This document shows, piece by piece, positions 128 through 43,571 of a stretch of 43,571 nt of DNA (positions are counted from its first letter, which is position 1; every line of letters starts with the position of its first letter). This DNA is from a virus. The notes below the pieces were generated by a model. That model was given only the letters and a program-made list of their open reading frames with translations. It was not told the origin of the DNA and made no database searches. The stretch lies in the IMG/VR virus record IMGVR_UViG_3300037309_000058, one strand, 5' to 3'. Made by a program: the position numbers and the translations under genes.

Positions 128-225
128 ACGAGGCTTCCATCGCGGCGGTGCGTCGTATTTTGTCAGACACTGCCCGTGAGAGAGCTCTTGAGAGCAAAGA
201 GAGTCAGGGCGACCCACGGGCCTAG
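1..225 (+). CDS. C-terminal part of a DUF3310-like protein, continuing 43268..43571 across the junction
   Basis: Position 1 is in frame with 43268 because 43445 equals position 1 and 177 nt is 59 codons. The joined protein is 133 aa and reads ...DLDKAVHYLQKAAEREV...; the stop is at 223-225. Confidence 0.75.
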   Translation: MQKAAEREVQSRPSWRGRETTAFLRQLGTDEQVAVKLALLGDYEASIAAVRRILSDTARERALESKESQGDPRA

Positions 226-12291: not shown

Positions 12292-12301
12292 TGCGTTGTG
12301 G

Positions 12302-12562: not shown

Positions 12563-12581
12563 GAGAAAATTCCTTCTTCTC

Positions 12582-12610
12582 AGAAAATGAGGATGCCCGA
12601 GAGCATCCTC
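12582..12610 (-). terminator. Rho-independent terminator after the major capsid gene
   Basis: On the minus strand it reads GAGGATGC-TCTCGG-GCATCCTC followed by ATTTTCT. It sits 23 nt after the coat stop. Confidence 0.65.
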
Positions 12611-12632
12611 GCTAGGCAAGCGGGAGCGCGCC

Positions 12633-13880: not shown

Positions 13881-13892
13881 GAAAGCCTCCTG

Positions 13893-14993: not shown

Positions 14994-17161
14994 TGCTTCT
15001 TACTCCTGTTGCGCCCACTTGGGCGGTCGCCTGCGGGGCGAGATCCGGAGCCGCTGCTATCGGACCCCTTAGCAGACGCGGCTCTGTCTGCCAAGCGAAT
15101 TTTTTGCTCCGCTACACGCGGCGCGTACCTTGCTTCGACCTGCGCGCGCTCAGCATCCGCCCGTGCGCGGGCAAGCTCTGCTTCTTCGCGGTCGGCGGCG
15201 GCGGCGGCGCGCACGGCGTCGGCCTTAGCCCGCTCGGCCTCGGCTTGCGCCTTCTCGAGCTCGGCTTGGCGCATGGCGGCGGCGTGCTCCATCGCGGCCT
15301 GTTGCTCCGCCTCCATCATCTGCATCTGCTGCATCTGCTCAGGCGTCATTTCGGGCGGCGCGCCCTCCTCTGCGCCTTCTTCGGGCTCCGGCTCGACGAT
15401 GCCCTGCTTCACCATCTGATCGTGCAGGCGCTTTCCGATGTCGTGCGCGCCCGGCCAGTCCATTGCCTTGACAATGAGGTCCCCAGCAATCGTGAACAGG
15501 TCTGGCGCAGTCTGCACGAGCGTCGTCATCGCCTCGCGGGCTTCCGCGCGCTGAGTGCTGAAGCTGGGGCCTGTCTCGAGGCTGACGTCGTACTTGGCGT
15601 CGCTGATCGACGGGCTCTCGTCGTCGTCGCTGTTCTCGTTGATATACATCATGATGGCCTTGTCGTCCTCGCCGATGGTGAGGACTTGCCGGACCGTATC
15701 GTACGCGAGAGGAAGAAGCTGATTGACAACGTCGCCACCTTCCAAGATGGCCTCGTTAAGGTTGTCGTGGTAGATGACCGTGGCGATATCGCCCTCAGCC
15801 TTACGGCTTTCGATGGCGCGCCCGCTCACTTCGTTCGAACGGATACCCAGCGACGCATCATGAAGCCCGGTGACATCTTTGATGTCTTGCTGATTGAGCT
15901 GTGCTTCTTGCAGAAGCGCCGCTGGGATAGTCGGGGGATCCACGCGCTCGGGCTTTTGCTTACCCGTGTTGAAGCGCAGAAGCGGATCACCGCTTATGTG
16001 AGCATCGCGCCACTCGTCTTCGCGGCCCTCAACGGCATCAGCCTCGGCGACCCACTGCGCCTTGGGAGCCAGCGCGAGGGTCTCGGCCGCGACGGAGCGC
16101 CAGTAGTTCTTGAGACGCTGGCTGTCCTTGGCGAAGCGAACAAGCCCGAAGCGCACGCGGTCGTCGCCAACGCGGACCGTGCGCCCCTCTACGCGAATGA
16201 CCGGCAAGCGGTTCAGTGGAAGCTCGTAGGCCTCCTCGCTGAGAATGGCGAAGCCCGTGATAAGGTGCATACGAGCATAAGTGCGAAAGCTCTCGCGGAT
16301 ACGCGGCTGCCCAGAAGCATCAAACCAGAGCTTCTCGGCGTACTCCTCGTACTCCATCTCGGTGACGTCTTTGACATCGCCGTCAGACATGAGTGCGAAC
16401 GTCGCTGGCTTCTCGATCATCTCCCAGAATTCGACGACGCGGACAATGTCCTTGTCGAACCAGCCCGGATCGAGGGTGGACTGCATATTGTCCCCCATCT
16501 CGCCGGGGCACGGGTGGTCGGGGAAGCGCTCTTCGTAGACGTTGCGCGGCATGATGTCCTGCACGAAGCAGTGACGCGCGTCACGTCCGGTCGGATCGAC
16601 GCTCATACGATCCCAGATAACGGCCAGCGGGTTCGGTATATGCCGAATGCGAATGTCTTGCTCGAAGACGTCATTCGCTGCGTACTCGAGCTCCACACGG
16701 AAGTTGGAGATACCGCAGGCCACCTGATCTTCGCAACACGCGTCATAGACGCGGTGCGCGCGGCTCTGCGCCTCAATCCCTTTGATGATCGCGCTGCGCA
16801 GCGTCGCTTCGCTGGTCGAGCCGTTCTTCTTCGGAATGACCTTGATCGCCGTCTTGTTCATGCGCCGGTCGCCGATAACCTGACCCACGAACTGCGGCAG
16901 AACGTTGATCGTGAGGCACGGACGGTTCATCTCGACCCGCATCCGCTTGACTTCTTCGTCCCACTGATCACCAGCAAGGAACTCGAGGTCTTCCAGCGCG
17001 GCCTCACGATTGATGCGATCATACGCAAGGTCGGCTGCCCACTCGTCGCGGGCATACTTGAGAAACTTTTCCGTGCTCTCAAACCCCTCCGGGGCGTACT
17101 TGTTCTCATCCGTCAGGGCCGGGACAGTGGTGTTGTCGCCAGTGCTGCTGGGAGGGGTCAT
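14990..17161 (-). CDS. Portal protein
   Basis: The motif LEFLAGDQWDEEVKRMRVEMNRPCLTINVLPQFVGQVIGDRRMNKTAIKV is typical of P22/podovirus portals. The C-terminus is a long Ala/Glu/Gln coiled coil. I chose the start at MTPPSS (17161); the ORF could extend to 17233. Confidence 0.85.
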   Translation of the reverse strand: MTPPSSTGDNTTVPALTDENKYAPEGFESTEKFLKYARDEWAADLAYDRINREAALEDLEFLAGDQWDEEVKRMRVEMNRPCLTINVLPQFVGQVIGDRRMNKTAIKVIPKKNGSTSEATLRSAIIKGIEAQSRAHRVYDACCEDQVACGISNFRVELEYAANDVFEQDIRIRHIPNPLAVIWDRMSVDPTGRDARHCFVQDIMPRNVYEERFPDHPCPGEMGDNMQSTLDPGWFDKDIVRVVEFWEMIEKPATFALMSDGDVKDVTEMEYEEYAEKLWFDASGQPRIRESFRTYARMHLITGFAILSEEAYELPLNRLPVIRVEGRTVRVGDDRVRFGLVRFAKDSQRLKNYWRSVAAETLALAPKAQWVAEADAVEGREDEWRDAHISGDPLLRFNTGKQKPERVDPPTIPAALLQEAQLNQQDIKDVTGLHDASLGIRSNEVSGRAIESRKAEGDIATVIYHDNLNEAILEGGDVVNQLLPLAYDTVRQVLTIGEDDKAIMMYINENSDDDESPSISDAKYDVSLETGPSFSTQRAEAREAMTTLVQTAPDLFTIAGDLIVKAMDWPGAHDIGKRLHDQMVKQGIVEPEPEEGAEEGAPPEMTPEQMQQMQMMEAEQQAAMEHAAAMRQAELEKAQAEAERAKADAVRAAAAADREEAELARARADAERAQVEARYAPRVAEQKIRLADRAASAKGSDSSGSGSRPAGDRPSGRNRSKKQ

Positions 17162-17171
17162 GCCACGATCT

Positions 17172-17345
17172 TCAGCCAAGGTCTTGTTCCTTCGTATTGT
17201 CCAGCCGTTCCTGAAGTATGGCGAGCTCCGCACGCAAAGACGCCACGTTCTGCTCGTACCCGGCGCGCGGCTTGCCGTCCCTCGTGGTCCGCGCTTTGAG
17301 CTTGTCGATCAGGCGAGCTTGCCTCGCTTGCAGTCCTCTGGTCAT
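17172..17345 (-). CDS. Small coiled-coil protein between TerL and portal (57 aa)
   Basis: The ATG at 17345 forms an ATGA overlap with the TerL stop. An alternative start is at 17357. The RBS is weak. Confidence 0.4.
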   Translation of the reverse strand: MTRGLQARQARLIDKLKARTTRDGKPRAGYEQNVASLRAELAILQERLDNTKEQDLG

Positions 17346-18925
17346 GCGCTCATCCATCCTGCTGCACGGTGCCGCCAACCCCGCGATGGGCGGGCTTTGG
17401 TTTCGCTTTTATCGTAGACAGGCTCAGCGAAGGTCAGGACCACCGCGTCCCAAAGGTCGGGGCTGCGCACGCCGCGCGCCCGCATTTGCTCCTTGGACTC
17501 CAGCACGACCCGCTGATTGGTATCATACTTGTACCCCGGCCCGACCGCGTCCTGTTGGAAGATGCCCTCGTCGGGTACATCCACGCCCATGGGGTCTTGG
17601 AGCCACTCGCGGCTCCGCATCCACATCTCTGCGCGGCGGTTCTTGGGACCGGGGCGCTTGCTGCCGTCGTCAAGAATGATGTCTGGCTCTTGCGGCGCAC
17701 CGCCGAAGTTGACGCCCACCGCGCGCTTGTCGTAAATCGCGCCGTAGGACTTCAAAAGGTCCACGATGCCTGCGCCAGAGCCCCCGGCATCGATGAACAT
17801 CTTCGCAATGTTCTCTTTGTCGATGATCTGCTTGAGCATGTTCGCAGCCTGCACGGTATCGATCTTCTCGATCGTACGATACTTGAGAATTTTGCGCCCC
17901 TGCCGCCACACGATAGCGAAAAGGTCGTCACCGAAGCGGCTGGGGTCCACGCCGACCACCACAGGGCCGCTCGGGTCCTCGACAGTGAACTTCCGCGCCT
18001 TGAGAACAAGGTTGCCCTTGATAAAGCTGTCGTGTCCGGTGGACTGAAAAGCCTCTTCTGCAGTCGCTGGATACTCCTGCATGAAGAGCATGGGGTCGCC
18101 AAGCTCAGCGATTTTGGCCCTGCGCCAGCACATTTGGCCGAGGCTGAGGCCGTGAAGCTGCGCGTAGTCGGCTTCGCTGATGTCCTCGCCCGTGCTGCGC
18201 TGATGGGAGAGGGTAAATCCTTCCGGAGGGGTCCGCGTATACCCCGCTTCCCAGAACCACGGGCTGAAAATGGGTATGAAGTCGCCAATTCCGGCCTCGG
18301 CGCGCTGCCAACGCTCGTAAAACTCACCGGTGATACCGTTTGCCGTGCTCTCGAGGATAATTTCGGTCCCCGGCAGGTCCGGAATGGTCTGCATGACCCC
18401 CGCGAAGTGCTCCGCAGCGTTCGGCCAGAAGGCCACCTCGCTTCCATGGAAGAGCTGAACGGTCTTGGAGCGCCCGACCGCCTTCTGTCCGGCAGTGGCG
18501 ACCGAATAACCGGAGTCGAGGCGATCAAAGAGAAGCTCTTTGGCGTTCGCGGCTCCGGTGCTCGGCTTCAGCGGACAATTTTCATGGTAGCGGGCGACCA
18601 TGCCGAACAGGTTGTCGGTCGCGGCCTGCTCGTGAGTCAGAATGAAGACGTTCGTGCCGTAGTTCAGACTCGCTCGATGATAGAACCGCCCGCCGACATA
18701 GGTGCTGAAGCCCTGTTGTCGCGCTTTGAGAATGAGGCAACGCACCTTGCCTGTCTCACGGCGCTGAGCTTCCATCTTCTCGTGCGCATATAGCTGCGCC
18801 TTGTTCAACGCGAAGGGAAGCAGCGCCCCGCTCTTGGCCTTGATCTTCAGACACGCGGCAGCGTAGCGGGGGAAATCCTCCCGCAGGCTGGCAAGCATAC
18901 GCATCTGTTCCTCGCGGCTGGCCAC
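17342..18925 (-). CDS. terL: Terminase large subunit
   Basis: It has a GTG start with AAGAGG 6 nt upstream. There is an ATPase motif (LILKARQQGFST) and the nuclease half contains FHGSEVAFW and ILESTANG. The length is 527 aa. Confidence 0.85.
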   Translation of the reverse strand: MASREEQMRMLASLREDFPRYAAACLKIKAKSGALLPFALNKAQLYAHEKMEAQRRETGKVRCLILKARQQGFSTYVGGRFYHRASLNYGTNVFILTHEQAATDNLFGMVARYHENCPLKPSTGAANAKELLFDRLDSGYSVATAGQKAVGRSKTVQLFHGSEVAFWPNAAEHFAGVMQTIPDLPGTEIILESTANGITGEFYERWQRAEAGIGDFIPIFSPWFWEAGYTRTPPEGFTLSHQRSTGEDISEADYAQLHGLSLGQMCWRRAKIAELGDPMLFMQEYPATAEEAFQSTGHDSFIKGNLVLKARKFTVEDPSGPVVVGVDPSRFGDDLFAIVWRQGRKILKYRTIEKIDTVQAANMLKQIIDKENIAKMFIDAGGSGAGIVDLLKSYGAIYDKRAVGVNFGGAPQEPDIILDDGSKRPGPKNRRAEMWMRSREWLQDPMGVDVPDEGIFQQDAVGPGYKYDTNQRVVLESKEQMRARGVRSPDLWDAVVLTFAEPVYDKSETKARPSRGWRHRAAGWMSA

Positions 18926-18928
18926 GGC

Positions 18929-19222
18929 TTACCTCTTCTTCGGCCGCGACATTGCGTCGCGCATCTTTGTATTCACGTGCTCGAGCAGCTTCTTCGGGTG
19001 CCAGCTCAGCGCGTTGTCCATCATGGATCCGCGCGGCTTGGCAGTGGTGCCGCCGCTGCGCTGCGCTTTCTGGCGCGCGTAGGCCTCCATCTCAGCGGCA
19101 GACTTGAAGCCGCTGCGCTTGGCCTCGTCCTCTTCACGCTTCGTGCGGGGGCGCGCCTGTTTGCGCTGGGCAGCCTCAAGCTGAGCGGCGCTGTCGATTT
19201 TCTTGGAAAGGAAGTTGGGCAT
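18929..19222 (-). CDS. Small basic protein (97 aa) between the TerS-like gene and TerL
   Basis: The ORF start shares one nt with the upstream stop. It is Lys/Arg-rich, and its function is unknown. Confidence 0.5.
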   Translation of the reverse strand: MPNFLSKKIDSAAQLEAAQRKQARPRTKREEDEAKRSGFKSAAEMEAYARQKAQRSGGTTAKPRGSMMDNALSWHPKKLLEHVNTKMRDAMSRPKKR

Positions 19223-19752
19223 CAGTTGATATCCTCCGGTCGCAGGCCGCTGAGATCTTCGAGCTCGGCTTGCTTGCGGCCCTTTTCAAGCAAGCTCTGT
19301 CCGATATCGATGGCTGCGTCGCGCACCGACATCTCCTCGCGGGTCGCCAGCTCACTGAGCAGCGTCTCGAGCGGCAAGGTCTCGGTTTCTTTCGGCGCAG
19401 TGGCGGGGATAAGTTTGCTCCACAGCCGGTAGAACTCGGTCGGGTGTTCACGTCCCCACACTACGAGCGCGGGCACGCCGCCCATGAGGTCGAAGGCGTC
19501 TGCGAGATCTTGGCGCGCTTGGCTCATGATCTTTGGCGACTGCGTCCCGCCTTTTTGATGGAATGCGCGCTTCTCATCAAGGCGCTTTTGCTCATGCGCG
19601 AGCAGAAGATCGAAGTTGGCGTCGCCCTCGGCGGCTTTGGACGCCATCTCGATGGTCTTCTTTTCCTTGTACCGAGCCTTGCGGCGCTCGAGCGCAGCCT
19701 CGTGGCGACGCCGCTGCTCCGCTGTTTCGTACTTCTTGCGTGGGCGTGCCAA
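19222..19752 (-). CDS. Putative terminase small subunit
   Basis: It is the first gene of the minus-strand block. It has a TTG start with AGGAG 7 nt upstream. The N-terminus is basic and the central motif is GGVPALVVWGREHPTEFYRLWSKLIP. The call rests on position and general resemblance only. Confidence 0.4.
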   Translation of the reverse strand: MARPRKKYETAEQRRRHEAALERRKARYKEKKTIEMASKAAEGDANFDLLLAHEQKRLDEKRAFHQKGGTQSPKIMSQARQDLADAFDLMGGVPALVVWGREHPTEFYRLWSKLIPATAPKETETLPLETLLSELATREEMSVRDAAIDIGQSLLEKGRKQAELEDLSGLRPEDIN

Positions 19753-21458: not shown

Positions 21459-21746
21459 ATGATTAACGAATTTTACCATGAGCTCACCTGCGGCGCAACC
21501 GGCACGGACTGCCCCGCTACGCTGGCTTGGCTAACTGCCAAGCTGGATGGCGATTCGCAGTACGCTGCCGCGCAGCGCGCCGCCGCATATTGGGCCGCCG
21601 CCGACGAAACGGTGCGCAGCGCAATTGCTGAGTGGCTCGGCTGGCTGGACTGCCCCGTGGCGGAGCGCGCCCCCGTGCCGCGCGCCATTGCGCAGGATTT
21701 CAAGGACGCCGAGCGCTTTGCGGAAGAACTGCTTAACGGCGATTAA
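21459..21746 (+). CDS. Early protein (95 aa), unknown function
   Basis: ATG with AGGAG 8 nt upstream. The composition is acidic and Trp/Ala-rich. Confidence 0.6.
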   Translation: MINEFYHELTCGATGTDCPATLAWLTAKLDGDSQYAAAQRAAAYWAAADETVRSAIAEWLGWLDCPVAERAPVPRAIAQDFKDAERFAEELLNGD

Positions 21747-21807
21747 TCATGTAAGGCGGGGGCACATAGCAGCAATCAAGCTGCAAATCACTAACGGAGT
21801 ATTTACT

Positions 21808-22470
21808 ATGACGACCAAGACCATCACTCGCGCCGCCAAGCCCGTTGCCAACGCAAAGGGCATGACCGGTAAATCCGCCCGCAAGATCGCGACGACCAAG
21901 GCTGCCGAAAAGGCTCCCAAGGACGTAGCGCCCAAGCTGGCCGATCCGTCCAAGCCCGCCGACACCATCGTGGAGTCCAAGGGTGTGTCCGGCGGCGTCA
22001 AACACTACGTCAGCGCCAACGACGGACGCAGCACGATGATCCCGACGGCTCAGTGGCGCGGCGAAATCCGCAAGCTGGCTGCCGTCGGCCAGTCGTACGA
22101 CGCCTTCTGCGCCGCGTGGAGCCGTGCCAGCACGGCCAAGCTCGCGGCAGGCGTGGATGCACGCAATGCCCCGCATAGCGCCAAGGCGGTCCAAGACTCC
22201 AAGGCCACTCAGCCGGTCAAGCCTGCCAAGGTCACCGCTGCCAGCCGCAAGGCTGCCGCAGTGGCCAAGGCCAGCGCCGAGGACTCCAAGGCGTTCAAGC
22301 TGACCGAAAAGGGCGAGGCCAAGCTGGCCAAGCTGGACGCCAAGGCGCGCGCCGCCGACAAGCTCCAGCGCATGGCAACCGCTGGCTCCATCGCCGCTGC
22401 GATCGCCCTTGACGGGGTGAGCCGGGGCGACGTCAACTACGCCATCAAGTGCAAGTTCATCGGCTACTGA
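21808..22470 (+). CDS. Lys/Ala-rich DNA-binding-like early protein with the shared C-terminal module (paralogue 1)
   Basis: I used the internal ATG at 21808 with ACGGAG upstream. There are long K/A/P-rich tracts, and the C-terminus is LTEKGEAKLAKL...DGVSRGDVNYAIKCKFIGY. Confidence 0.6.
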   Translation: MTTKTITRAAKPVANAKGMTGKSARKIATTKAAEKAPKDVAPKLADPSKPADTIVESKGVSGGVKHYVSANDGRSTMIPTAQWRGEIRKLAAVGQSYDAFCAAWSRASTAKLAAGVDARNAPHSAKAVQDSKATQPVKPAKVTAASRKAAAVAKASAEDSKAFKLTEKGEAKLAKLDAKARAADKLQRMATAGSIAAAIALDGVSRGDVNYAIKCKFIGY

Positions 22471-22984: not shown

Positions 22985-23013
22985 TTGGCCATCCGGCTTT
23001 CACAGCCTATAAG
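22985..23013 (+). promoter_or_regulatory. Candidate sigma70-type promoter (TTGGCC-N17-TATAAG)
   Basis: The -35 is at 22985-22990 and the -10 at 23008-23013, about 40 nt upstream of the 23054 gene. It abuts the 23013 hairpin. Confidence 0.35.
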
Positions 23014-23036
23014 GGGCGCGGGGCAACCCGCGCCCC
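23013..23036 (+). promoter_or_regulatory. Perfect 10-bp GC hairpin with a GCAA tetraloop
   Basis: It reads GGGGCGCGGG-GCAA-CCCGCGCCCC. There is no U-tract downstream. Confidence 0.75.
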
Positions 23037-23053
23037 CGTTCAAGGAGACGACC

Positions 23054-23476
23054 ATGAAAATGCCTCCCGCCTTTGCCGAGCAGGCAAGGCAAGCCGCCGA
23101 GGACATTCCTCGGCAAGTTATCGCCAACGTGCTGGAGCGCCTGCTCCCGCGCGTCCTCGTGGCAAGGCGTCCGGCCGAGCCTGCGCAGCCGGGCTCGCCG
23201 GCTCCGTTTGTTCAGGACGCAACCGGCCAGATCCGGCCGACGGGCACGCCGCTGAGCCGGGCCGACAAGCGCCCGAGCCAGCGCGCCATGCTCCCCATGC
23301 TCATCGTTGCTACCTCCAAGGGCGCGCGCAAGGCGCGCTGGAAGGGCGAGCACGACACGCTCAACAAGATCATCGGCGCTGGCACGGTCCGGCAGGCGCT
23401 GATGCTAAGTGATGTCAAGTTTGGCGACATCACATACGCCTGGAAGACCGGATACATTGACATCCTCACAGTCTAA
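23054..23476 (+). CDS. Early protein with the shared C-terminal module (paralogue 2)
   Basis: ATG at 23054 with AAGGAG upstream. The C-terminus is LNKIIGAGTVRQALMLSDVKFGDITYAWKTGYIDILTV. Confidence 0.6.
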   Translation: MKMPPAFAEQARQAAEDIPRQVIANVLERLLPRVLVARRPAEPAQPGSPAPFVQDATGQIRPTGTPLSRADKRPSQRAMLPMLIVATSKGARKARWKGEHDTLNKIIGAGTVRQALMLSDVKFGDITYAWKTGYIDILTV

Positions 23477-23487: not shown

Positions 23488-24528
23488 ATGAAGATGAGAA
23501 ACAAGTTCGACAGCCGCTGCCGCCATTGCGGGGGCAAGGTCGCTGCTCAGCAGGGATGGGCGGTCCTCGCCAATGACAGGTGGCAAGTGGAGCACGAGCC
23601 GGGCACATGCGTCCCCGCCGTGCCCATGGACGCCGACAAGCCGATGACCAAGATTGAGCCGGCCGACGAGGCGGTGGACAAGGTCATCAGCCTGATTGCT
23701 GGCAAGCTGGCAAGCGACCTCGTGCCTCAGCTCGTGGCCGAGAACATAGCCGAGCTCAGCCGCGCGGTGGAGATCACGATCCCCAAGCTGCCCAAGGTCA
23801 AGATCGGCACGGCGCATCGCTTCCTTCCCACGCTGCTTCAGGCGGTCATGGCAGGCTGCTCGCCGTTCCTCGTGGGTCCGGCTGGCTCCGGCAAGACCAC
23901 GCTCTGCGAGCAGGTGGCCAAGTCGCTTGGCCGTCCGTTCTACATGGCGGCGCGCGTCACCAGCGAGTTCAAACTGGTCGGGTTCGTGGACGCCTATGGC
24001 AAGACGGTCCGGACTCAGTTCCGCGAGGCCTATGAGCACGGCGGCGTCTTCCTCTTTGACGAGGTGGACGCATCCGACGCCGATGCGCTTACTGCCTTCA
24101 ACGCCGCGCTGAGCAACGGATACAGCGAGTTCCCTGACGGGCTCATCAAGCGTCACCCTGACTTTGTCGCCCTTGCGGCTGGCAATACCTTCGGGCGCGG
24201 CGCTGACCGCCAGTACGTCGGTCGTCAGCAGCTGGACGCGGCGACGCTGGACCGCTTCCAGATCTTTGAAGTGGACTACGACGAGCAGCTGGAGCTTGCG
24301 CTTGCTGGCAATGCCGACTGGGTTAAGTTCGTGCAAGCCGTGCGGCGCGCGCTGGACGCCGAGAAGATCCGGCACATCGTGTCGCCCCGTGCCAGCATCG
24401 CAGGCGCGAAGATGCTCGCCGCTGGCATGGACCGGCAACTTGTGGAGGAGGCCTGCATCTGGAAGGGCCTGGACGCTGGCAACCGCTCACGTGCGGTCAG
24501 CCGCCTTGCGGGGAGGGCTGCGGCATGA
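23488..24528 (+). CDS. AAA+ ATPase of the MoxR/CbbQ/CobS (AAA_5) type with an N-terminal zinc-ribbon-like motif
   Basis: Walker A is LVGPAGSGKTT and Walker B is VFLFDEVD. The sensor region is ALAAGNTFGRGADRQYVGRQQLDAATLDRF. The N-terminus has CRHCGG...HEPGTC. Confidence 0.8.
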   Translation: MKMRNKFDSRCRHCGGKVAAQQGWAVLANDRWQVEHEPGTCVPAVPMDADKPMTKIEPADEAVDKVISLIAGKLASDLVPQLVAENIAELSRAVEITIPKLPKVKIGTAHRFLPTLLQAVMAGCSPFLVGPAGSGKTTLCEQVAKSLGRPFYMAARVTSEFKLVGFVDAYGKTVRTQFREAYEHGGVFLFDEVDASDADALTAFNAALSNGYSEFPDGLIKRHPDFVALAAGNTFGRGADRQYVGRQQLDAATLDRFQIFEVDYDEQLELALAGNADWVKFVQAVRRALDAEKIRHIVSPRASIAGAKMLAAGMDRQLVEEACIWKGLDAGNRSRAVSRLAGRAAA

Positions 24529-25379
24529 GCAACGTCCTCACCGACCTGAGCCCGGAGCGTTGGCGGTTGCAAGCCGACACGCTGCGCGACGCGGTTGACT
24601 GGATCAACCGCACTCCTGCCGTCTGGGACCAGAAGTCCAGCCGCGACAAGCGCGGTTATGAGTGGACGCTTGGCGCGAGCTACGAAGATGCGCTGAAGCT
24701 GGCCAGTGACGGCTGGCCGGAAGGCGTGCGCAAGCTCAGCGCCCTCGCCGCCACTGTCCCGAACGGAGTGGAGTGGTTCCAGGAGCATGACGTCGCGGGG
24801 CATTATCCCGATGTACCCCGTGCGCTTGCTGGCGACCCCTTCAACATGATCACGCGCGGCAAGGCGCACAAGCCCAAGCCGAGTATGACGCTTGTTGTGA
24901 GCTACGGCGCTAACTGCGACATCAGCGGCGAGGCGATGTGGAACTACGGCGCGGCGGTCGTGGCGCTTGTTGACCGGCTTGAGAGCCGCCATGTGCGCTG
25001 TGAAGTGCTCAGTGTCTGGAACACTGAGCTACGGGGGCGCAAGCGTCGGCGCGGCTCTATGGCGGTGACGCTCAAGCGGGCGGAGGAGGTCCTGGACCTC
25101 AGCGCGCTCGCGTTCGGGCTGGCTCACCCCGCCATGCTCCGCCGCATCGGCCTTGCCCTTCTGGAGCGGAGCCCTGCCGACCAAGAGGACTACGGGTACG
25201 GCGTGAGCGCCAGCCAGATCCAGCCCGCCGATCTCATCAACTTGCCTGAGGGCGCGCTGCTCGTGGGCGGTATCGGTTCTTCCTACGCCTGCTCCACGAT
25301 GGCCGGGGCGCTGGAGTACGTCAAGTCCGAGATCAACAAGGCGGCGGGCGAGTCCATCGCAGAACTGGAGGAGGTATGA
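24525..25379 (+). CDS. Partner protein of the AAA+ ATPase (284 aa), family not recognised
   Basis: It is translationally coupled by an ATGA overlap. I did not see a clear MIDAS DxSxS motif, so a vWA/CobT-like assignment is unsupported. Confidence 0.55.
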   Translation: MSNVLTDLSPERWRLQADTLRDAVDWINRTPAVWDQKSSRDKRGYEWTLGASYEDALKLASDGWPEGVRKLSALAATVPNGVEWFQEHDVAGHYPDVPRALAGDPFNMITRGKAHKPKPSMTLVVSYGANCDISGEAMWNYGAAVVALVDRLESRHVRCEVLSVWNTELRGRKRRRGSMAVTLKRAEEVLDLSALAFGLAHPAMLRRIGLALLERSPADQEDYGYGVSASQIQPADLINLPEGALLVGGIGSSYACSTMAGALEYVKSEINKAAGESIAELEEV

Positions 25380-30092: not shown

Positions 30093-30440
30093 ATGTCCAA
30101 GATTGGCAAGATTGAAGAGTACGCCGCCATCCTAGGCGTAGATATCTCACAGCCGCTTACTGAGGCGGAGGTTGACGCTGCATACCGCGAGGCTGCGAAG
30201 CGGGCGCACCCTGATGCGGGCGGTGACCCGGCTGACTTCCACAAGGTCGTAGACGCCCGTGCCGTCGTCATGGGGCATGTGCGCGCTCAGAAGCCTCAGA
30301 ATGCACTGCCCGATGGGCGGGCGCGCTGCGCGCGCTGCACAGGGCGCGGAACCGTCGAGAGTCGCCGGGCGTGGCGCACAATGATCACCCGCTGCCCCGA
30401 GTGCAAAGGCACTGGCGCGTCGGCCCAAGGCGCGTTATAG
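30093..30440 (+). CDS. Mini-DnaJ: J-domain with an HPD motif plus two CxxCxGxG zinc-finger motifs
   Basis: The J-domain part is AAYREAAKRAHPDAGGDPADFHKV. The zinc motifs are CARCTGRG and CPECKGTG. Confidence 0.7.
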   Translation: MSKIGKIEEYAAILGVDISQPLTEAEVDAAYREAAKRAHPDAGGDPADFHKVVDARAVVMGHVRAQKPQNALPDGRARCARCTGRGTVESRRAWRTMITRCPECKGTGASAQGAL

Positions 30441-38295: not shown

Positions 38296-38519
38296 TTACG
38301 ATGAACTACTGTAGAGAATGCGGGCGGAGCGAAGGCGGACGCTGGATAGCCTGCCCTCAAATTTCGGCATACTTAGACGGTGCCCGCGAGTACGCCAAAA
38401 TCGTGCGTTGGGATCCGAACGACGCCAAGGTCGTTGCCAACATCGCGTCAATGTTTAGAAACAGGGGATACCCCGCATGGTATCGCCCAATCGCGGAGAG
38501 AATTAGTGGTCAAGCGTAA
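38292..38519 (+). CDS. Small protein (75 aa) with an N-terminal CxxC motif
   Basis: GTG at 38292 overlaps the SNF2 stop. An alternative ATG is at 38301 (MNYCREC). Confidence 0.45.
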   Translation: MITMNYCRECGRSEGGRWIACPQISAYLDGAREYAKIVRWDPNDAKVVANIASMFRNRGYPAWYRPIAERISGQA

Positions 38520-39198
38520 GCCCGTCAAGAGCCCTCTCCAGACGCCGCCGTGGTGGCGGGAGGGCTTTGTGCCTTGCGCCTGTCGTGATCCTGCCAGCGT
38601 GGCGGGAGGGCTGTTCGGCACCATGTTCATGCTTGCCCCTACATTCGAAGGCACGTTGGCGGTGCAGCGAATCGTCAATATGCCGGGGCACCTAGGCGTC
38701 AGGGAGCGCGTGATCGCCGCCAACCAAATGCGACACTATACTGTTATAACAGACGAAGAAAGTGCTTTACAGTCACTTCTTCTCGAGCTAAAGTCCCAAA
38801 TGCTGACCGAGGGCGCGACGCGCGAGGCAGTACGTTTAGTCGGGGAGTATATCCCCATAACCGACAAGGAGTACAAGATCATGTCCGAGAAGCTCAAGAC
38901 CCCCGCCAAGAAGGCCCCCGCCGCCAAGGCCCCGGCTGCGAAGGCCCCCGCCGCTCCCAAGAAGGCCCCCGCCCCGCCGAAGGAAGGCTCTGGCCGTGGC
39001 CGCGCCTCCACGCTCGACGAAAAGGCCAAGCTGGCTCTGACCGAAAAGGGCCAGAAGAAGGTCGAGAAGGCGGGCAAGGACGACAAGCTGGCGCTGATCG
39101 CCAAGGCCAAGACCGTCGGCAACGCCCTCAAGGTCGATGGCGTCCTGCCCAAGGACATCCACTACGCCGTGAAGGTCGGCCTTCTCGAGCTGAGCTGA
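38506..39198 (+). CDS. Protein with a histone-H1-like AKP tract and the shared C-terminal module (paralogue 3)
   Basis: I chose the GTG at 38506, which has GGAGAG 5 nt upstream. It contains KKAPAAKAPAAKAPAAPKKAPAPPK, and the C-terminus is LTEKGQKKVEKAG...DGVLPKDIHYAVKVGLLELS. A shorter product from the ATG at 38881 (AAGGAG upstream) is possible. Confidence 0.55.
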   Translation: MVKRKPVKSPLQTPPWWREGFVPCACRDPASVAGGLFGTMFMLAPTFEGTLAVQRIVNMPGHLGVRERVIAANQMRHYTVITDEESALQSLLLELKSQMLTEGATREAVRLVGEYIPITDKEYKIMSEKLKTPAKKAPAAKAPAAKAPAAPKKAPAPPKEGSGRGRASTLDEKAKLALTEKGQKKVEKAGKDDKLALIAKAKTVGNALKVDGVLPKDIHYAVKVGLLELS

Positions 39199-39238: not shown

Positions 39239-39994
39239 ATGCGTGTTTATATCCCGACCTATGGGCGGGCTCACCGCCTGCGTACCGTGGACTACCTCCC
39301 CAAGCTCCGGTCCAGAATTACTCTGGTCGTTCGCCCGGAGGAAGTCCACGAGTACGGCCCTCTCGGCTACGACATGGCCGTGCTTTCCAAGAAAGTCAAG
39401 GACATCGCCGCCACGCGGCACGCCGTTGGTGAGATCGCCGGCGAGCGCGGCGAAAAGTTCTTCGCCATGGCTGACGACGACCTGCGCGTGCTTCAGCGCG
39501 ACGACCAGCTCAAGCTCACACCGTTGCAGGATGGCCGAGAGCTTATGCGCGTCATGAAGAAGCTGCTCGCCACGCAATACGCGCAGGTCGCGCTCTCGCC
39601 CCGCTTCATGAACAACACGGTCCCTGAGCCCGTAGTGCCGCTGAAGCCGCAGTCGCAGTTCACGGCTTATCGGACCGAAGACTATCGCCTGCTCAAGTTC
39701 GGCGAGGCGAAGTACTTCGAGGACGTTCACCGGACGCTCCAGCTGCTGACGGCAGGCAAGCCCACCGCCATGATTTACGACTACGCGATCGACATCGGCC
39801 CGATGAACACTGACGGCGGGATGGCCGACTGGCGTAACTACGACGACATGATGGCGGAGGCCTTCTGGATGGAGCGCCGCTGGCCGGGCATCGTGCGCGC
39901 GTGCGAAGTGCGCGACGAGAAATTTTGGCCCGGCCAACCGAACGTCCTCCGGCCTCATATCAGGATGCAATGGAAGAAGGCGTACAAAGGATGA
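39239..39994 (+). CDS. GT-A-fold (glycosyl)transferase-like protein, paralogue A
   Basis: The N-terminal MRVYIPTYGRA resembles the GT2 IPTYNRA strand. There is a DxD-like motif, FFAMADDDL. It is clearly paralogous to the next gene. Confidence 0.45.
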   Translation: MRVYIPTYGRAHRLRTVDYLPKLRSRITLVVRPEEVHEYGPLGYDMAVLSKKVKDIAATRHAVGEIAGERGEKFFAMADDDLRVLQRDDQLKLTPLQDGRELMRVMKKLLATQYAQVALSPRFMNNTVPEPVVPLKPQSQFTAYRTEDYRLLKFGEAKYFEDVHRTLQLLTAGKPTAMIYDYAIDIGPMNTDGGMADWRNYDDMMAEAFWMERRWPGIVRACEVRDEKFWPGQPNVLRPHIRMQWKKAYKG

Positions 39995-40755
39995 AGATAT
40001 TTATACCGAGCCGTGCGCGTGCCGCGCAGCGGCATCACACGTGGGATGCTCTACCGCCTGCCGCCAAGCGGCGGGCGCTTATTGTCATCGGTCCTGAGGA
40101 CGCGGCAGACTACGCTGAACGTTTTCCGCTGTCCAACCTTATGGTCGTGGAGGCAAAGGGTATCGGGCCGGTGCGCCAGCATATCGTAGATATCAGCGAC
40201 GGCCCGGTGCTGATGCTGGACGACGACCTCAGCTTCTTCGTGCGCCGCACAGACAACCCGACCAAGCTGGCCAAGGCCACGGGGCCGGAAGTGACCGCGA
40301 TGCTGCGCTGCATGGAGCGCGTGTTGAAGAAAGATGCGCACGCGGCGGTCGCTGTCCGTGAAGGGGCCAATCGGAACACGGACCCTTTCCTCTACAACAC
40401 GCGCTGTCTTCGGGCGCTCGGATACAACGCTACTGTCCTCAAGCGAGAGGGCGTGCGCTTTGACCGTCTCCCTGTCATGGAGGACTTTGACGTTGCGCTC
40501 CAGCTGCTCCGACGGGGGCACCGCAGCGTGACGCTCAACGAGTGGTGCCAAGACCAAGGCACGAGCAATGCGCCGGGCGGCTGCTCAACGTATCGTACGA
40601 TGGACGTGCAGGCCAAGGGAGCCGAGGGGCTGGCCAAGCTGCACCCCGGCTATGTGCGCCTCGTGACCAAACAAACGAAGACCGCGTGGGGCGGGCAGGA
40701 ACGCAAGGACGTTCAAGTCTCTTGGAAAAAGGCATACGACGATGCGCACCGCTGA
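39991..40755 (+). CDS. GT-A-fold (glycosyl)transferase-like protein, paralogue B
   Basis: It has MKIFIPSRARA, VLMLDDDL, MEDFDVALQLLRRG and a C-terminal SWKKAY. The start has an ATGA overlap with paralogue A. Confidence 0.45.
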   Translation: MKIFIPSRARAAQRHHTWDALPPAAKRRALIVIGPEDAADYAERFPLSNLMVVEAKGIGPVRQHIVDISDGPVLMLDDDLSFFVRRTDNPTKLAKATGPEVTAMLRCMERVLKKDAHAAVAVREGANRNTDPFLYNTRCLRALGYNATVLKREGVRFDRLPVMEDFDVALQLLRRGHRSVTLNEWCQDQGTSNAPGGCSTYRTMDVQAKGAEGLAKLHPGYVRLVTKQTKTAWGGQERKDVQVSWKKAYDDAHR

Positions 40756-41611
40756 TTTCGTCAAGTTTATCAAAGCCCGTGAGCGGCACCGTATCGCCAA
40801 AGAGCGGGGCCGGGCGGTGTTCGGCAGTGGAAAGCGCGGCGAGACGTTTGATCCAATCATCGACGTGTACCGCTTCTGCAACGTCCGCCGCAACGACGAC
40901 CGCGTGACGCGCTGGGTTCACGAGCACTACATGGGCCACTTCGGCTCTTCGCCGTACCTGTGGTTCGCGCTCGTGGTGGCGCGGCTGTTCAACAAGGAAG
41001 ACACGCTCGAGGGCATCCGCCCCCATGTACTGCCCTTTGACGCTAAGAAGATGCGCGCGGCGCTGTACAAGATGCGGCAGACGGGCACCATCTTCAATGG
41101 GGCTTACATCGTCAGCACCAACGGCATGTCCATGGACAAGGTGGACTACGTGATCGACGTGCTGCTTGCTCCGCTATGGAAGCGGCGGGACAAGGTTGCG
41201 GCGGCGCTGGCCAAGTGTGGCTCGCTTGCCGAGGCTCATGTCGTGCTGTCTCAGGAGCGCGGGCTCGCCAGCTTCATGGCTGCGCAAGTGCTGGCTGACT
41301 TGAAGTACGCCGACGACGGGCGTGTCTGGGACGACTTCGCCACCTTTGCGGCAAGCGGCCCCGGCAGCAAACGCGGCCTGAACCGTGTGATGGGTAACGA
41401 CGCTGCAAAGGGCTGGCGTGAAGACGTTTTCCGGGCTACCTTACTGGAGTTGCGGGAAGCTGCCAACGCTGCGCTCGCCCCAGATCTGGAGCCTCTCACA
41501 GCGCAAGATATTCAGAACTGCCTGTGCGAGTTCGACAAGTATGAGCGCGTTCGGCTAGGCGAAGGCAAGCCGAAGCAGAGGTATGTTCCTTTGGAGGAGA
41601 AGAAGCGATGA
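40742..41611 (+). CDS. aGPT-Pplase-like protein (alpha-glutamyl/putrescinyl thymine pyrophosphorylase family; DNA base hypermodification)
   Basis: The motifs are DPIIDVYRFCNVRRNDDRVTRW, FNGAYIV, GLASFMAAQVLADLKY, SGPGSKRGLNR and NCLCEFDKYERV. They match my recollection of this family. No search was run. Confidence 0.55.
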   Translation: MRTADFVKFIKARERHRIAKERGRAVFGSGKRGETFDPIIDVYRFCNVRRNDDRVTRWVHEHYMGHFGSSPYLWFALVVARLFNKEDTLEGIRPHVLPFDAKKMRAALYKMRQTGTIFNGAYIVSTNGMSMDKVDYVIDVLLAPLWKRRDKVAAALAKCGSLAEAHVVLSQERGLASFMAAQVLADLKYADDGRVWDDFATFAASGPGSKRGLNRVMGNDAAKGWREDVFRATLLELREAANAALAPDLEPLTAQDIQNCLCEFDKYERVRLGEGKPKQRYVPLEEKKR

Positions 41612-42708
41612 TGATCAACACTGCGGCCAACGTCAATGATGCGCTAGAGAACGGCCTCCACCTTATGTTGGAGCCTTCCACGCGCGTCCTCGACACGCGC
41701 GGCGGCAAGGTGCTGCGCCACAACGGGCCGGTCGCAACAGTGAGCGCCGACCCGTACAAGCGCGTCCTGTTCAGCCCGATGCGCAACGCCAATCCCTTCT
41801 TCCACTTCATGGAAGCAATCTGGATGTTGGCGGGGCGCAACGACCTGCCTTGGCTGGCGCAGTTCAACAAGCGGATGGCCGAGTACTCCGATGACGGCGG
41901 AAAGACACAGCCCGCCGCCTATGGTCACCGTTGGCGTCGCCACTTCGGATACGATCAGCTCAACGAAGTAATCCAAATGCTCAGGGCTGACCCCAGCACG
42001 CGTCGTGCCGTGCTGGCCATGTGGGACGGGGGTGAGAACGAAACGACCAGCGATTTAGTGCGTGGTAGTATGGGCGGCAAAGACGTCCCCTGCAATACGC
42101 ACGCCTATTTCAGCATCGTTGATGGCAAGCTGGACATGATGGTCTGCTGTCGCTCCAACGATCTATGGTGGGGAGCCCACGGGGCGAACGCAGTCCACTT
42201 CAGCATCCTGCAAGAATACGTCGCCGCCTCTGTCGGTGTAGGTCTCGGCACCATGACGCAGGTCAGCAACGACTATCACCTCTACACCGACGTGGTGCCG
42301 CAAGAACGCATCGCTGAGATTATCAGCGACGTGTCGCGGCATGACTACTACTTTCACGCCAGCGTTCAGCCGACGACGCTGTTCTACGATGAAGAGGAGG
42401 TAGAGGCGTTTGACCGTGCGCTCAACCGCTTCATGCTTTTTGCTGACCCTGTGGCCAACCCGCCGCGCACACCGATGGACCCCGAAGGGCGGCGTGCCGA
42501 AGTCAAGCACCTGCCGATGACAGGCTCGTTCGTCATCGACAAGATGGCGTACCCCATGCTCCGCGCGTGGGACGCGCAGAAGGTCGGCTCCGTCGGGACG
42601 GCTTTAATGTGGTGCGAGCAGATCGGGACCGTCAAAGACTGCGACTGGCGTGTCGCTTGTCAGCAATGGCTCCAGCGAAAGTTCACCGCGAAGGGAATTA
42701 CGGTATGA
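41608..42708 (+). CDS. ThyA-fold enzyme: thymidylate synthase or dUMP hydroxymethylase
   Basis: The motifs are FFHFMEAIWMLAGRNDL, YGHRWR, DPSTRRAVLAMWD, DVPCNTH (the nucleophile Cys), CCRSNDLWWGAHGANAVHFS and NDYHLYTD. The start has an ATGA overlap with the upstream gene. Confidence 0.75.
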   Translation: MMINTAANVNDALENGLHLMLEPSTRVLDTRGGKVLRHNGPVATVSADPYKRVLFSPMRNANPFFHFMEAIWMLAGRNDLPWLAQFNKRMAEYSDDGGKTQPAAYGHRWRRHFGYDQLNEVIQMLRADPSTRRAVLAMWDGGENETTSDLVRGSMGGKDVPCNTHAYFSIVDGKLDMMVCCRSNDLWWGAHGANAVHFSILQEYVAASVGVGLGTMTQVSNDYHLYTDVVPQERIAEIISDVSRHDYYFHASVQPTTLFYDEEEVEAFDRALNRFMLFADPVANPPRTPMDPEGRRAEVKHLPMTGSFVIDKMAYPMLRAWDAQKVGSVGTALMWCEQIGTVKDCDWRVACQQWLQRKFTAKGITV

Positions 42709-43271
42709 TCGAAGAGAAGAAGATGCTGGACGCGCTTGCGCTCATGCGCAAGGCCGCGTACGTCAAGCGGTTCCACACCATGCCGCTGATCGGTGACAAC
42801 ACCGTGGGGCAGCACACCTTCGGAGTCGTTGCGCTGCTCTGCGTTGTCGTGCCCCCTGCCCTGCTGCGCCCGGCGCTGCTACAGGCCGCGCTGCTCCACG
42901 ACGTTCCAGAGGCCGTCGCAGGGGACATACCCAGCCCGACCAAGCGCAGCGCGCCGGGGCTGAAGCAAGCCTGCGACACGTACGAAGCAGCCATACTAAA
43001 AGAGGCGGGTATCATAGATATGAGCGCCTACCTCCTCGCCTACGAGACAGCGTGGCTCACACTTGCTGACTCTCTAGAGGGATGGCTGTTCTGCATTGAG
43101 CAGCTGAAGATGGGCAACCGTCTAATTCTCGAGGCGGCTGAGAACTTCCGCAGCTACGTCTGGGAGAAGTTCGGCGTCATGGAAGCGACCGACGAAGCCT
43201 ACGACGCCTTCAAGAAAATCGTGAAAGGCGCGGAGAACACGCACCGCGCGCTTACGGGAGAGGAAGAATGA
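42705..43271 (+). CDS. HD-domain 5'-deoxynucleotidase (YfbR-like)
   Basis: I used the internal ATG at 42705 (ATGA overlap). It contains RFHTMPLIGDNTVGQHTFGV and LLHDVPEAVAGDIPSPTK. Confidence 0.7.
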   Translation: MIEEKKMLDALALMRKAAYVKRFHTMPLIGDNTVGQHTFGVVALLCVVVPPALLRPALLQAALLHDVPEAVAGDIPSPTKRSAPGLKQACDTYEAAILKEAGIIDMSAYLLAYETAWLTLADSLEGWLFCIEQLKMGNRLILEAAENFRSYVWEKFGVMEATDEAYDAFKKIVKGAENTHRALTGEEE

Positions 43272-43571
43272 CGCGGGCCAACGATATTCAGCACGGGGGC
43301 ACCCACTACAAGAAGCTCGATTACGAGCATTGGGATTGGGTCTGCGATATCGGCCTGCCCTACTTGCTGGGCTGCGCCACGAAGTACACCGCGCGATGGC
43401 GGGACAAGGGCGGGGCGCTCGATCTGGACAAGGCCGTCCACTATTTGCAGAAGGCCGCTGAACGGGAAGTTCAATCCCGTCCAAGCTGGCGGGGCAGGGA
43501 GACGACGGCGTTCCTGCGCCAGCTAGGCACCGACGAGCAGGTCGCTGTTAAGCTGGCACTTTTGGGCGACT
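43268..43571 (+). CDS. DUF3310-like protein, N-terminal part (continues at 1..225 after circular closure)
   Basis: The ATG at 43268 has an ATGA overlap with the HD gene. It contains GGTHYKK...GCATKYTARWRDKGGALDLDKAVHYL. The ORF is still open at the window end. Confidence 0.75.
   Translation, partial: MTRANDIQHGGTHYKKLDYEHWDWVCDIGLPYLLGCATKYTARWRDKGGALDLDKAVHYLQKAAEREVQSRPSWRGRETTAFLRQLGTDEQVAVKLALLGD
43445..43571. repeat. Terminal overlap, right copy (identical to 1..127)
   Basis: Same comparison as the left copy. It is consistent with a circular-assembly overlap or with terminal redundancy. Confidence 0.95.

Follow-up and report, generated by a model that had tools for sequence, protein, structure and literature searches.

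In phages of the M6, PaMx11, ViI, PhiW-14 and SP10 type, thymidine in DNA is hypermodified by a kinase-dependent pathway whose common logic is that 5-hydroxymethyldeoxyuridine (5-hmdU) is made before replication and tailored in the DNA afterwards, giving amino-acid- or polyamine-derived adducts. T-even phages follow a related plan on cytosine, with a ThyA-fold hydroxymethylase, depletion of the canonical nucleotide and transfer of sugars onto the hydroxymethyl group in DNA; base J of kinetoplastids (JBP1/2 and JGT) is an O-glycosylated 5-hydroxymethyluracil (5-hmU) obtained by oxidation of thymine in DNA; and the phage TET/5mYOX-GT-A pathways likewise place sugars on DNA after replication. Phage GT-A enzymes resemble JGT in predicted fold, and their genes in metaviromes are split about evenly between 5mYOX (dioxygenase) and ThyS neighbourhoods (10.1101/2023.12.21.572611). 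Besides, clusters combining thymidylate synthase, aG/PT-PPlase1, a 5'-deoxynucleotidase and a beta-glucosyl-HMC-alpha-glucosyltransferase (HMC, hydroxymethylcytosine) were reported in 2022 for HTVC023P-type pelagiphages, in which thymidylate synthase and aG/PT-PPlase1 were described as partner genes (PMC9599517). Here we describe a cluster formed by the final six plus-strand genes (A to F) of the IMG/VR virus record IMGVR_UViG_3300037309_000058, a stretch of 43,571 nucleotides referred to in full as the window. The cluster encodes two TAGT-family glycosyltransferases (A and B), a clade 1 aGPT-Pplase protein (C), a ThyA-fold enzyme (D), an HD-domain protein (E) and a DUF3310 protein (F). In our judgement it is rather likely to represent the glycosylation branch of phage 5-hmU hypermodification, in which 5-hmdU would be made pre-replicatively and then O-glycosylated in DNA to a base-J-like product, possibly a disaccharide.

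The locus resembles each of the described systems in part. It shares with the kinase-dependent phages a ThyA-fold enzyme predicted to be a deoxyuridine monophosphate (dUMP) hydroxymethylase, the clade 1 gene, the HD gene and the DUF3310 gene, but lacks the 5-hmdU DNA kinase (5-HMUDK), AADT (PF18724) and the pyridoxal phosphate, radical S-adenosylmethionine (SAM) and flavin adenine dinucleotide tailoring enzymes, carries two TAGT genes upstream of the clade 1 gene, and has a glycoside as its predicted product. The corresponding order in the M6-like phage AN14 is kinase, HEL (the clade 1 gene), Nmad5, x, ThyA, HD, x, DUF3310. The likeness to the T-even system lies in the ThyA-fold hydroxymethylase, the depleted canonical nucleotide and the sugars added in DNA, whereas the base would be uracil and not cytosine, the GT-B alpha- and beta-glucosyltransferases are missing, so that a TAGT would have to act first, and no deoxynucleoside monophosphate (dNMP) kinase or dCTPase homologue was found in Pfam scans of the genome. 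The predicted product class is that of base J, although 5-hmU would come from a ThyA homologue before replication and not from thymine oxidation in DNA, no 2-oxoglutarate (2OG)/Fe(II) dioxygenase is present, and the replacement would be genome-wide rather than local. The TET/5mYOX pathways have the glycosyltransferase family and fold in common with the window, together with post-replicative sugars on DNA, but the window has neither dioxygenase nor methyltransferase, its precursor would be drawn from the nucleotide pool, and the base would be U and not C.

The assignment of the modified base depends on gene D. Its product scored 70.9 bits against Pfam Thymidylat_synt and matched phrog_5131 at E = 2.4e-99, and its best PDB match was the cytidine monophosphate (CMP) hydroxymethylase MilA, ahead of thymidylate synthases. 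With the M6-type (39%) and PhiJL001 enzymes the protein shares 39-40% identity from end to end, C-terminal extension included, and tblastn retrieved SPO1-like Bacillus phages over 89-91% of the query and ViI-like phages over 64-74%. By sequence comparison, its nearest cultured relatives are thus the M6-like, SPO1-like and ViI-like enzymes, which belong to phages with hmU or hmU-derived DNA. According to rules published in 2026 for ThyA (E. coli numbering), N177 selects dUMP and an Asp at that position selects deoxycytidine monophosphate (dCMP), a bulky L143 shuts out water in methylases and is replaced by Asp or Glu in hydroxymethylases, and D169N marks 5-hydroxy-dCMP synthases (PMC13326640). 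Gene D contains KDVPC, with an Asp three residues ahead of the catalytic Cys as in the L143D/E hydroxymethylase mark, and RSNDLWWGAHGAN, in which D169 and N177 are matched by Asp and Asn, respectively; this Asn aligns with the Asp of MilA and with the Asn of the Mycobacterium tuberculosis thymidylate synthase. Because the Asp at position 169 is retained, gene D would not be a 5-hydroxy-dCMP synthase, and its residues predict a dUMP hydroxymethylase. The base would be 5-hmU and not 5-hydroxymethylcytosine (5-hmC), since gene D bears this dUMP hydroxymethylase signature. Moreover, a 2OG/TET-JBP dioxygenase, a C5-methyltransferase and a second ThyA-fold enzyme had no Pfam match anywhere in the genome, which leaves 5-hmU as the sole hydroxymethyl acceptor on offer.

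The two glycosyltransferases belong to the TAGT family (PF20691, cutoff 27.5 bits), which was matched by gene A at 54.7 bits (E = 1.7e-14) and by gene B at 82.2 bits (E = 6.2e-23), and both matched phrog_842, annotated as beta-glucosyl-HMC-alpha-glucosyltransferase (E = 4.8e-30 and 9.7e-48, respectively). They are 27% identical over their full length and keep the DXD motif as DDD, and in gene B these residues (D77-D78-D79) are invariant in 52 aligned sequences. The AlphaFold2 (AF2) model of gene B, with a predicted local distance difference test (pLDDT) score of 94.8, confidently adopts a GT-A fold carrying the DXD metal/nucleotide-sugar motif; Foldseek against the PDB returned GT-A enzymes at probability 1.00, namely RmlT (8bz4, E = 1.2e-6), TarP, AvpGT and WrtF, and a sequence search of the PDB with gene B gave nothing even at E = 10. 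Considering the family sizes (644 homologues for gene B and 16 for gene A), gene B was taken as the core transferase and gene A as the accessory one. A second TAGT upstream of the main TAGT also recurs in five related loci (L007-L009, L029 and L045) and in phage LuckyBarnes. The characterised TAGT-family members act on DNA (PMC13216743, 10.1101/2023.12.21.572611), as do the phage GT-A enzymes studied so far (10.1101/2023.12.21.572611), and the Pfam family includes the beta-glucosyl-HMC-alpha-glucosyltransferase of T6 (PMC13216743). In a 2026 survey, 288 of 753 glycosyltransferase-encoding phage genomes carried a TAGT homologue only (PMC13216743). The TAGT pair of the window is predicted to transfer sugar to the modified base in DNA.

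The lack of a nucleobase kinase could be assessed over the whole genome. In an end-to-end comparison, bases 1-127 of the window were exactly the same as bases 43445-43571. An exact end repeat in a contig is the usual mark of circularity left by k-mer assemblers, and because both ends are identical over 127 bases the window was taken as a complete circular phage genome of ~43,444 bp; its own sequence was also recovered from two more samples, and SRR12687059 and JGI 3300043176 are samples that contain the contig. When the curated gene products of both strands were searched against Pfam, none matched PF18748 and none reached the cutoff of a nucleotide-kinase family; the M6-type kinase, used as a phmmer --max query on every six-frame open reading frame (ORF) of the genome, gave a best E of 0.4; and the only strict Walker A motif within a real gene was that of the AAA+ gene at 23488. 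A kinase concealed in an unannotated frame was ruled out by the six-frame search and the Walker A scan, and since the genome is complete the absence is real, as had been stated in a preliminary description of this DNA, which saw no 5-HMUDK. That description regarded the missing kinase as a deviation from the expected route, a view that the comparative data given below do not support. A sugar transferase draws on a nucleotide-sugar donor, so a TAGT route can proceed without a kinase; the activated partner is the sugar donor and not the base. In a pathway that adds sugars, a kinase-less architecture is therefore expected and not anomalous.

The genomic context was compared across 80 IMG/VR loci carrying a gene C homologue (37-64% identity; individual loci are numbered with the prefix L), which were annotated with hidden Markov models built here and inspected over ~8 kb per side. 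The conserved core of these loci consists of the clade 1 gene, ThyA, HD and DUF3310, and the C-D-E-F order of the window is that of L005-L009 and of most of the 80. Within the inspected flanks one neighbouring slot is variable: a kinase is present in 31 loci (10 with AADT and 21 without AADT within 8 kb), a TAGT in 25 (7 with radical SAM/SPASM) and radical SAM alone in 5, all three being absent in 19, and in none of the 80 do kinase and TAGT occur in one locus (Fisher p = 2e-7). Directly upstream of the clade 1 gene lies a TAGT in 15 loci and a kinase in 17. The kinase and TAGT partner types are interleaved in the neighbour-joining tree built from the clade 1 proteins, an arrangement indicating that the slot was swapped repeatedly. 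Three metagenomic contigs of 42-47 kb share the window order, that is SNF2, a small gene, one or two TAGT, the clade 1 gene, in some cases radical SAM/SPASM, ThyA, HD and DUF3310. Within the sugar branch the window is an ordinary case, and it is this conserved synteny, rather than translational coupling, that singles out the cluster.

Other arrangements were also seen among the relatives. A radical SAM + SPASM gene stands beside the clade 1 gene, on its ThyA side or just upstream, in many of them (for example L006 8062-9030 and L007 8611-9591, and also L015, L017, L029, L042, L055 and L063); the window has none, and this gene may define a third tailoring branch. The clade 1, ThyA, HD and DUF3310 genes occur without flanking TAGT, kinase or AADT in L014, L016, L024, L025, L039, L058 and L091, among others, and 13 of the 19 partnerless loci have at least 4 kb on both sides; the partner of such loci is encoded elsewhere, or else plain 5-hmU DNA is the substrate of the clade 1 protein. 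As 19 loci hold the clade 1 gene with no TAGT or kinase in the flanks, clade 1 and TAGT or kinase can occur independently. The reverse case is given by the uncultured Manatee Spring virus (MW202897, L004, 40,378 bp, circular), which, in the backbone order of the window, has PolA, a helicase, a glucosyl transferase, a 'pyrimidine hmase', HD and a DUF3310-like gene; its inspected 10.7 kb contain no clade 1 gene, implying that TAGT and ThyA can be combined without it.

Cultured phages hold similar modules. PhiJL001, a phage of Alphaproteobacteria, encodes a PF18723 protein (gp19), a TAGT (gp22), Nmad5 (gp23), a ThyA homologue annotated as similar to the SPO1 dUMP hydroxymethylase (gp24) and an HD protein (gp25); the Brevibacterium phage LuckyBarnes has consecutive genes for a ThyA homologue, two adjacent TAGTs and a PF18723 protein (gp38-gp41); and in the Ralstonia phage phiRSL1 the clade 1 and TAGT matches are about 5 kb apart. 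As in the window, TAGT, clade 1 and ThyA (with or without HD) stand in one neighbourhood near PolA in PhiJL001 and LuckyBarnes. The window nonetheless differs from PhiJL001, LuckyBarnes, phiRSL1 and the pelagiphages in that protein identity is about 30-40% and gene order, backbones and hosts are other ones, and PhiJL001 adds Nmad5. Megablast of the cluster against phage records found no close cultured relative, the sole match being a 48-nt patch in gene C that is common to M6-like phages. The proposal in the preliminary description of a new DNA modification system is not upheld, given that the same gene set already exists in PhiJL001, LuckyBarnes and metagenomic relatives and is in print for pelagiphages (PMC9599517). 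Its suggestion of a variant pathway survives in part: glycosylated hmU is the best-supported product, and neither the missing kinase as an anomaly nor the novelty of the architecture stands, the architecture being recurrent in loci and cultured phages. Overall, the sugar branch is a recurrent system, seen in cultured phages and in print, that is recognised yet biochemically uncharacterised. Two accessory genes of its relatives have no counterpart in the window: the N-terminal domain of a dATP/dGTP diphosphohydrolase (PF18909) is encoded by PhiJL001 gp16 (L002 4293-4871), a few genes upstream of the cluster, and Nmad5 (PF18757) is found both as PhiJL001 gp23 (7836-8435) and as the M6-type gene after gp55 (AN14, L001 9149-9709).

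A pathway can be proposed in which each enzymatic step, the acceptor, the sugar and the gene C role are inferred. Gene D would convert dUMP to 5-hmdUMP, and gene E would drain the competing canonical nucleotide, most likely deoxythymidine monophosphate (dTMP). Host kinases would raise 5-hmdUMP to 5-hmdUTP, a step to which the DUF3310 protein might possibly, on weak grounds, contribute, and the phage PolA would put 5-hmdU into DNA in place of T. After replication, TAGT-B would transfer a sugar from a nucleotide-sugar onto the 5-hydroxymethyl oxygen to give O-glycosyl-5-hmU, and TAGT-A might add a second sugar, or form another linkage, at some or all sites, for which the T2/T6 TAGT that extends glucosyl-hmC provides a precedent. 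Gene C, helical and DNA-glycosylase-like, would handle a flipped-out 5-hmU-type base beside whichever enzyme modifies the hydroxymethyl group, serving as a recognition partner or acting as a second, Cys-dependent enzyme.

The standing of this clade 1 protein is central to the interpretation. Gene C matched PF18723 HMUDK_hel at 132.6 bits (E = 2.3e-38, profile positions 7-278 of 281, cutoff 25), a family described as '5-hmdU DNA kinase, helical domain' that is also matched by M6-type proteins annotated in GenBank as aGPT-Pplase clade 1. The label 'aGPT-Pplase-like' first given to this product was therefore right as to the family. It does not extend to the clade with proven group transfer, as Pfam scans found no match to PF18724 (clade 2, AADT) in gene C or elsewhere in the genome, and it is the M6-type gp51 that matches PF18724 instead. 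These families were reportedly named by Iyer et al. in 2013 (NAR 41:7635). M6 gp51 is the enzyme proven to transfer groups to 5-phosphomethyldeoxyuridine (5-PmdU) (PMC8989533). The AF2 model of gene C is all-helical (pLDDT 91.9), and in BFVD it retrieved the clade 1 proteins of phiRSL1 (E = 4e-12, template modelling score 0.85), PhiW-14 (gp72) and the SP10 kinase fusion, with weaker matches to AADT-domain proteins (E about 1e-2, probability 1.00). Against the PDB its top four matches, all non-significant singly (E of 0.8 or more), were an archaeal 8-oxoguanine glycosylase, PaMx11 gp46 (AADT), endonuclease III and a queuine salvage enzyme, three of which are helix-hairpin-helix glycosylase-type proteins. 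The AADT family itself is described with a helix-hairpin-helix fold (PMC5889632, PMC8989533). A PDB sequence search with gene C returned nothing even at E = 10, and about 3,700 homologues were found in a metagenome protein collection, many of them on 42-48 kb contigs.

Across M6-type, PhiJL001, LuckyBarnes and metagenomic sequences, R50, D53, Y122, D186, D198, the G206-P-G208 hairpin, C262, E263 and K266 of gene C are invariant. Because LCE[FY]DKY was one of the search patterns by which the IMG/VR loci were retrieved, selection accounts in part for its invariance there, although the motif is also invariant in sets gathered by other means. Alignment of the gene C profile to M6 AADT with hhalign gave a single 20-column local match with C262 opposite Cys247, at a probability below 1%, which is a hint and no proof of homology. 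In AADT, the attack on C6 of the base is proposed to come from Cys247 (PMC11472151). Besides, the DDF motif at D198 resembles the DFD motif by which AADT contacts the flipped nucleoside. For SP10 the sole aGPT-Pplase listed is a clade 1 domain in fusion with the kinase (Table 3, PMC5889632); the kinase domain by itself still phosphorylates 5-hmdU DNA, and M6 gp55 is dispensable for glycine transfer in vitro (PMC8989533). From these observations, gene C is probably a binder of flipped 5-hmU-type bases and may be catalytic.

Other readings of the cluster were weighed against glycosylation of 5-hmU. A T-even-like cytosine system, in which gene D would be a dCMP hydroxymethylase or hydroxylase and the sugars would be placed on 5-hmC or 5-hydroxyC, agrees with the PHROG name of the TAGT family and with a CMP hydroxymethylase as the best PDB match of gene D, but the specificity residue of gene D is an Asn that pairs with the Asp of MilA, the Asp at 169 is retained, unlike in 5-hydroxy-dCMP synthases (PMC13326640), the closest phage relatives are dUMP hydroxymethylases, and Pfam scans of the genome found no dCTPase, C5-methyltransferase or TET-like gene; the cytosine system was rejected on the specificity residue of gene D and is in our opinion extremely improbable. 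The acceptor cannot be read from sequence, and the closest solved folds of gene B are wall-teichoic-acid and nucleoside glycosyltransferases (RmlT, TarP and AvpGT), so a cluster that merely supplies 5-hmdU or plain dTMP, with TAGTs acting off DNA, for example on nucleotides, phage proteins or polymers of the host envelope, was also considered. We see this as very unlikely, given that the TAGT genes overlap nucleotide- and DNA-modification genes, keep their synteny with gene C and ThyA across unrelated phage lineages and take the slot of the DNA kinase, and that characterised TAGT members and phage GT-A enzymes act on DNA (PMC13216743, 10.1101/2023.12.21.572611).

The two remaining explanations concern gene C. 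In one, the TAGTs would glycosylate part of the 5-hmU and gene C would convert the remainder independently, for instance by regenerating thymine or forming another adduct, with partial replacement as in M6, ViI and PhiW-14. Such parallel fates fit the retention of gene C in the ThyA-HD-DUF3310 core irrespective of the tailoring enzyme, and even where none is nearby; the invariant polar residues of gene C suggest catalysis, and M6 and ViI are reported to replace their thymine in part (PMC8989533). Against this, clade 1 has no known activity and neither Pfam nor the AF2 model reveals a reductant-handling or cofactor domain in gene C, and we regard the explanation as unlikely. Somewhat more doubtful still is that gene C is a true group-transfer enzyme, whose Cys would add at C6 and generate an exocyclic methylene as in AADT, with TAGT in the role of the kinase, its glycoside serving as the better leaving group, and another nucleophile instead of a sugar on the mature base. 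TAGT and kinase do share, in a mutually exclusive manner, the slot beside gene C; C262-E263 is invariant in independent sets, and hhalign sets C262 on AADT C247; D198 lies in the DFD-like DDF motif; BFVD and PDB searches tie the fold to AADT; the clade 1-kinase fusion is the sole aGPT-Pplase listed for SP10 (PMC5889632); and 21 kinase loci lack AADT within 8 kb. However, a glycoside is a far poorer leaving group than phosphate and the chemistry has no precedent, hhalign gives a probability below 1% and Foldseek retrieves 8z2m at E = 1.5, the invariance of LCE[FY]DKY in IMG/VR is the partly constructed one noted above, the 10.7 kb of MW202897 that were inspected hold a TAGT-ThyA-HD-DUF3310 array but no clade 1 gene, 19 loci with a clade 1 gene lack both TAGT and kinase in the flanks, and M6 gp55 is dispensable in vitro (PMC8989533).

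Glycosylation of pool-derived 5-hmU in DNA remains our preferred reading, and several points weigh against it. The characterised TAGT, that of T2/T6, has a sugar and not a base as its acceptor, and no measurement of glycosyl-hmdU in any phage was found in the literature. The invariant Cys-Glu pair aligned with AADT Cys247 hints that gene C is an enzyme, in which case the final base could differ from, or exceed, a simple glycoside. Products could also vary within the clade, as some relatives add a radical SAM/SPASM gene; a kinase could sit elsewhere in the IMG/VR genomes, beyond the flanks inspected; and no dedicated 5-hmdUMP kinase was identified. A wider proposal seems to us evenly balanced, namely that in the virion DNA of this clade T is replaced by O-glycosyl-5-hmU, made from a pool precursor without dioxygenase or nucleobase kinase, and that clade 1 is a Cys/Glu-dependent enzyme or an obligatory base-flipping partner common to the phosphate and sugar branches. 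In its boldest version, glycosylation would stand in for phosphorylation as the activating step before further substitution.

Family calls for the cluster (Table 1) were based on searches of the window products against Pfam with curated cutoffs, PHROG, NCBIfam and the PDB. The six-ORF layout of the preliminary description, with its starts and overlaps, was re-found at every coordinate, and the identities that it had proposed for the six products were all confirmed above the curated Pfam cutoffs. NCBIfam gave no match for genes A, B, C and F and only sub-threshold ones for D (thymidylate synthase) and E (deoxynucleotidase). The overlaps that had been read as translational coupling are present, as ATGA start/stop overlaps at 39991, 41608, 42705 and 43268 and as a 14-nt overlap between genes B and C (40742-40755), and a purine-rich stretch lies upstream of every one of the six starts. 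They do not serve as a distinguishing mark, since short overlaps are frequent along the whole plus strand, where the same module has 4-nt overlaps at 24525, 25376, 34511, 35347, 35931 and 38292 and 1-nt overlaps at 27583 and 36239; coupling alone is no special feature of the cluster.

Table 1. Genes of the predicted 5-hmU glycosylation cluster, in window coordinates.
Feature	Position	Strand	Basis of assignment
Gene A: accessory TAGT-family GT-A glycosyltransferase, 251 aa	39239..39994	+	Pfam, PHROG, alignment to gene B
Gene B: core TAGT-family GT-A glycosyltransferase, 254 aa	39991..40755	+	Pfam, PHROG, AF2/Foldseek
Gene C: aGPT-Pplase clade 1 / HMUDK_hel, 289 aa, stand-alone, without kinase domain	40742..41611	+	PF18723
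Gene D: predicted ThyA-fold dUMP hydroxymethylase, 366 aa	41608..42708	+	Pfam, PHROG, residue signature
Gene E: HD-domain YfbR-like 5'-deoxynucleotidase, 188 aa	42705..43271	+	Pfam, PHROG
Gene F: DUF3310 protein, first 101 codons	43268..43571	+	Pfam, PHROG
Gene F, last 32 codons and stop	128..225	+	Read-through of circular junction

The two genes that close the cluster are assigned at family level. Gene E matched the Pfam YfbR-like family at 49.1 bits (E = 6.8e-13) as well as HD_3, and the PHROGs that it matched bear the annotations deoxyribonucleoside 5'-monophosphate phosphatase and dATP triphosphohydrolase; an HD gene comes after ThyA in most related loci. Gene F crosses the circular junction, so that the whole protein has 133 aa with its stop at window position 225. 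It matched DUF3310 at 25.1 bits (E = 1.8e-5, cutoff 24) and phrog_5839 at E = 2e-21, with weaker matches to PHROGs annotated 'nucleotide kinase', and a DUF3310 model built here matched 67 ORFs across 94 sequences, typically at the end of the cassette. DUF3310 makes up residues 122-184, at the C-terminus, of the T7 nucleotide kinase gp1.7. Gene F as a kinase of this type was rejected on a non-significant BLASTP comparison with gp1.7 and the absence of the N-terminal 120 residues, and is kept as a weak idea.

If the proposed pathway is true, a widespread group of ~44-kb podophages would carry a sugar-coated uracil in place of thymine, which would be a fourth pyrimidine glycosylation chemistry in phage DNA, beside glucosyl-hmC, arabinosyl-hydroxyC and TET-derived glycans, and the first natural base-J-like DNA outside eukaryotes. 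Such a modification would bear on restriction and CRISPR resistance, on sequencing artefacts at T positions in metaviromes and on the supply of enzymes for labelling 5-hmU. The mutual exclusivity of kinase and TAGT beside the clade 1 gene has a value that is independent of the window, and it recasts the clade 1 protein, hitherto an orphan, as a factor of general use on 5-hmU DNA.

Beyond the cluster, the genome is arranged in two blocks. The minus strand from ~160 to 19,750 carries structural genes, including those for a P22-type coat protein, the portal, the terminase large subunit and a lysozyme-domain protein. The plus strand from ~20,400 to the end carries replication genes, among which the Pfam scan identified an AAA_5 ATPase with a DUF7192 partner, a DUF3854/DUF5906 primase-helicase, PolA, a PD-(D/E)XK nuclease, an Rv2179c-like exonuclease and an SNF2 helicase. 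The AAA_5 (MoxR/dynein-like) ATPase gene, in the region 23488-25379 (+), overlaps the following DUF7192 gene (E = 1.6e-32), and the pair heads the replication module. Additionally, the products of 21547-22470, 22985-23476 and 38380-39198 (+), for which the Pfam scan gave no match, are otherwise unrelated and have in common a C-terminal domain of ~55 aa with the pattern TEKG ... D.L ... V..DI.YA.K.G, whose local alignments score 64-122 against shuffle means of 36-43. The 38380 product has an Ala/Lys/Pro-rich, histone-H1-like stretch, its gene lies immediately upstream of the TAGT genes, and relatives likewise hold a small gene in this slot. A small protein encoded at 30093-30440 (+) shows sub-threshold likeness to the DnaJ J-domain and to the DnaJ CXXCXGXG zinc finger (E about 5e-4 each).

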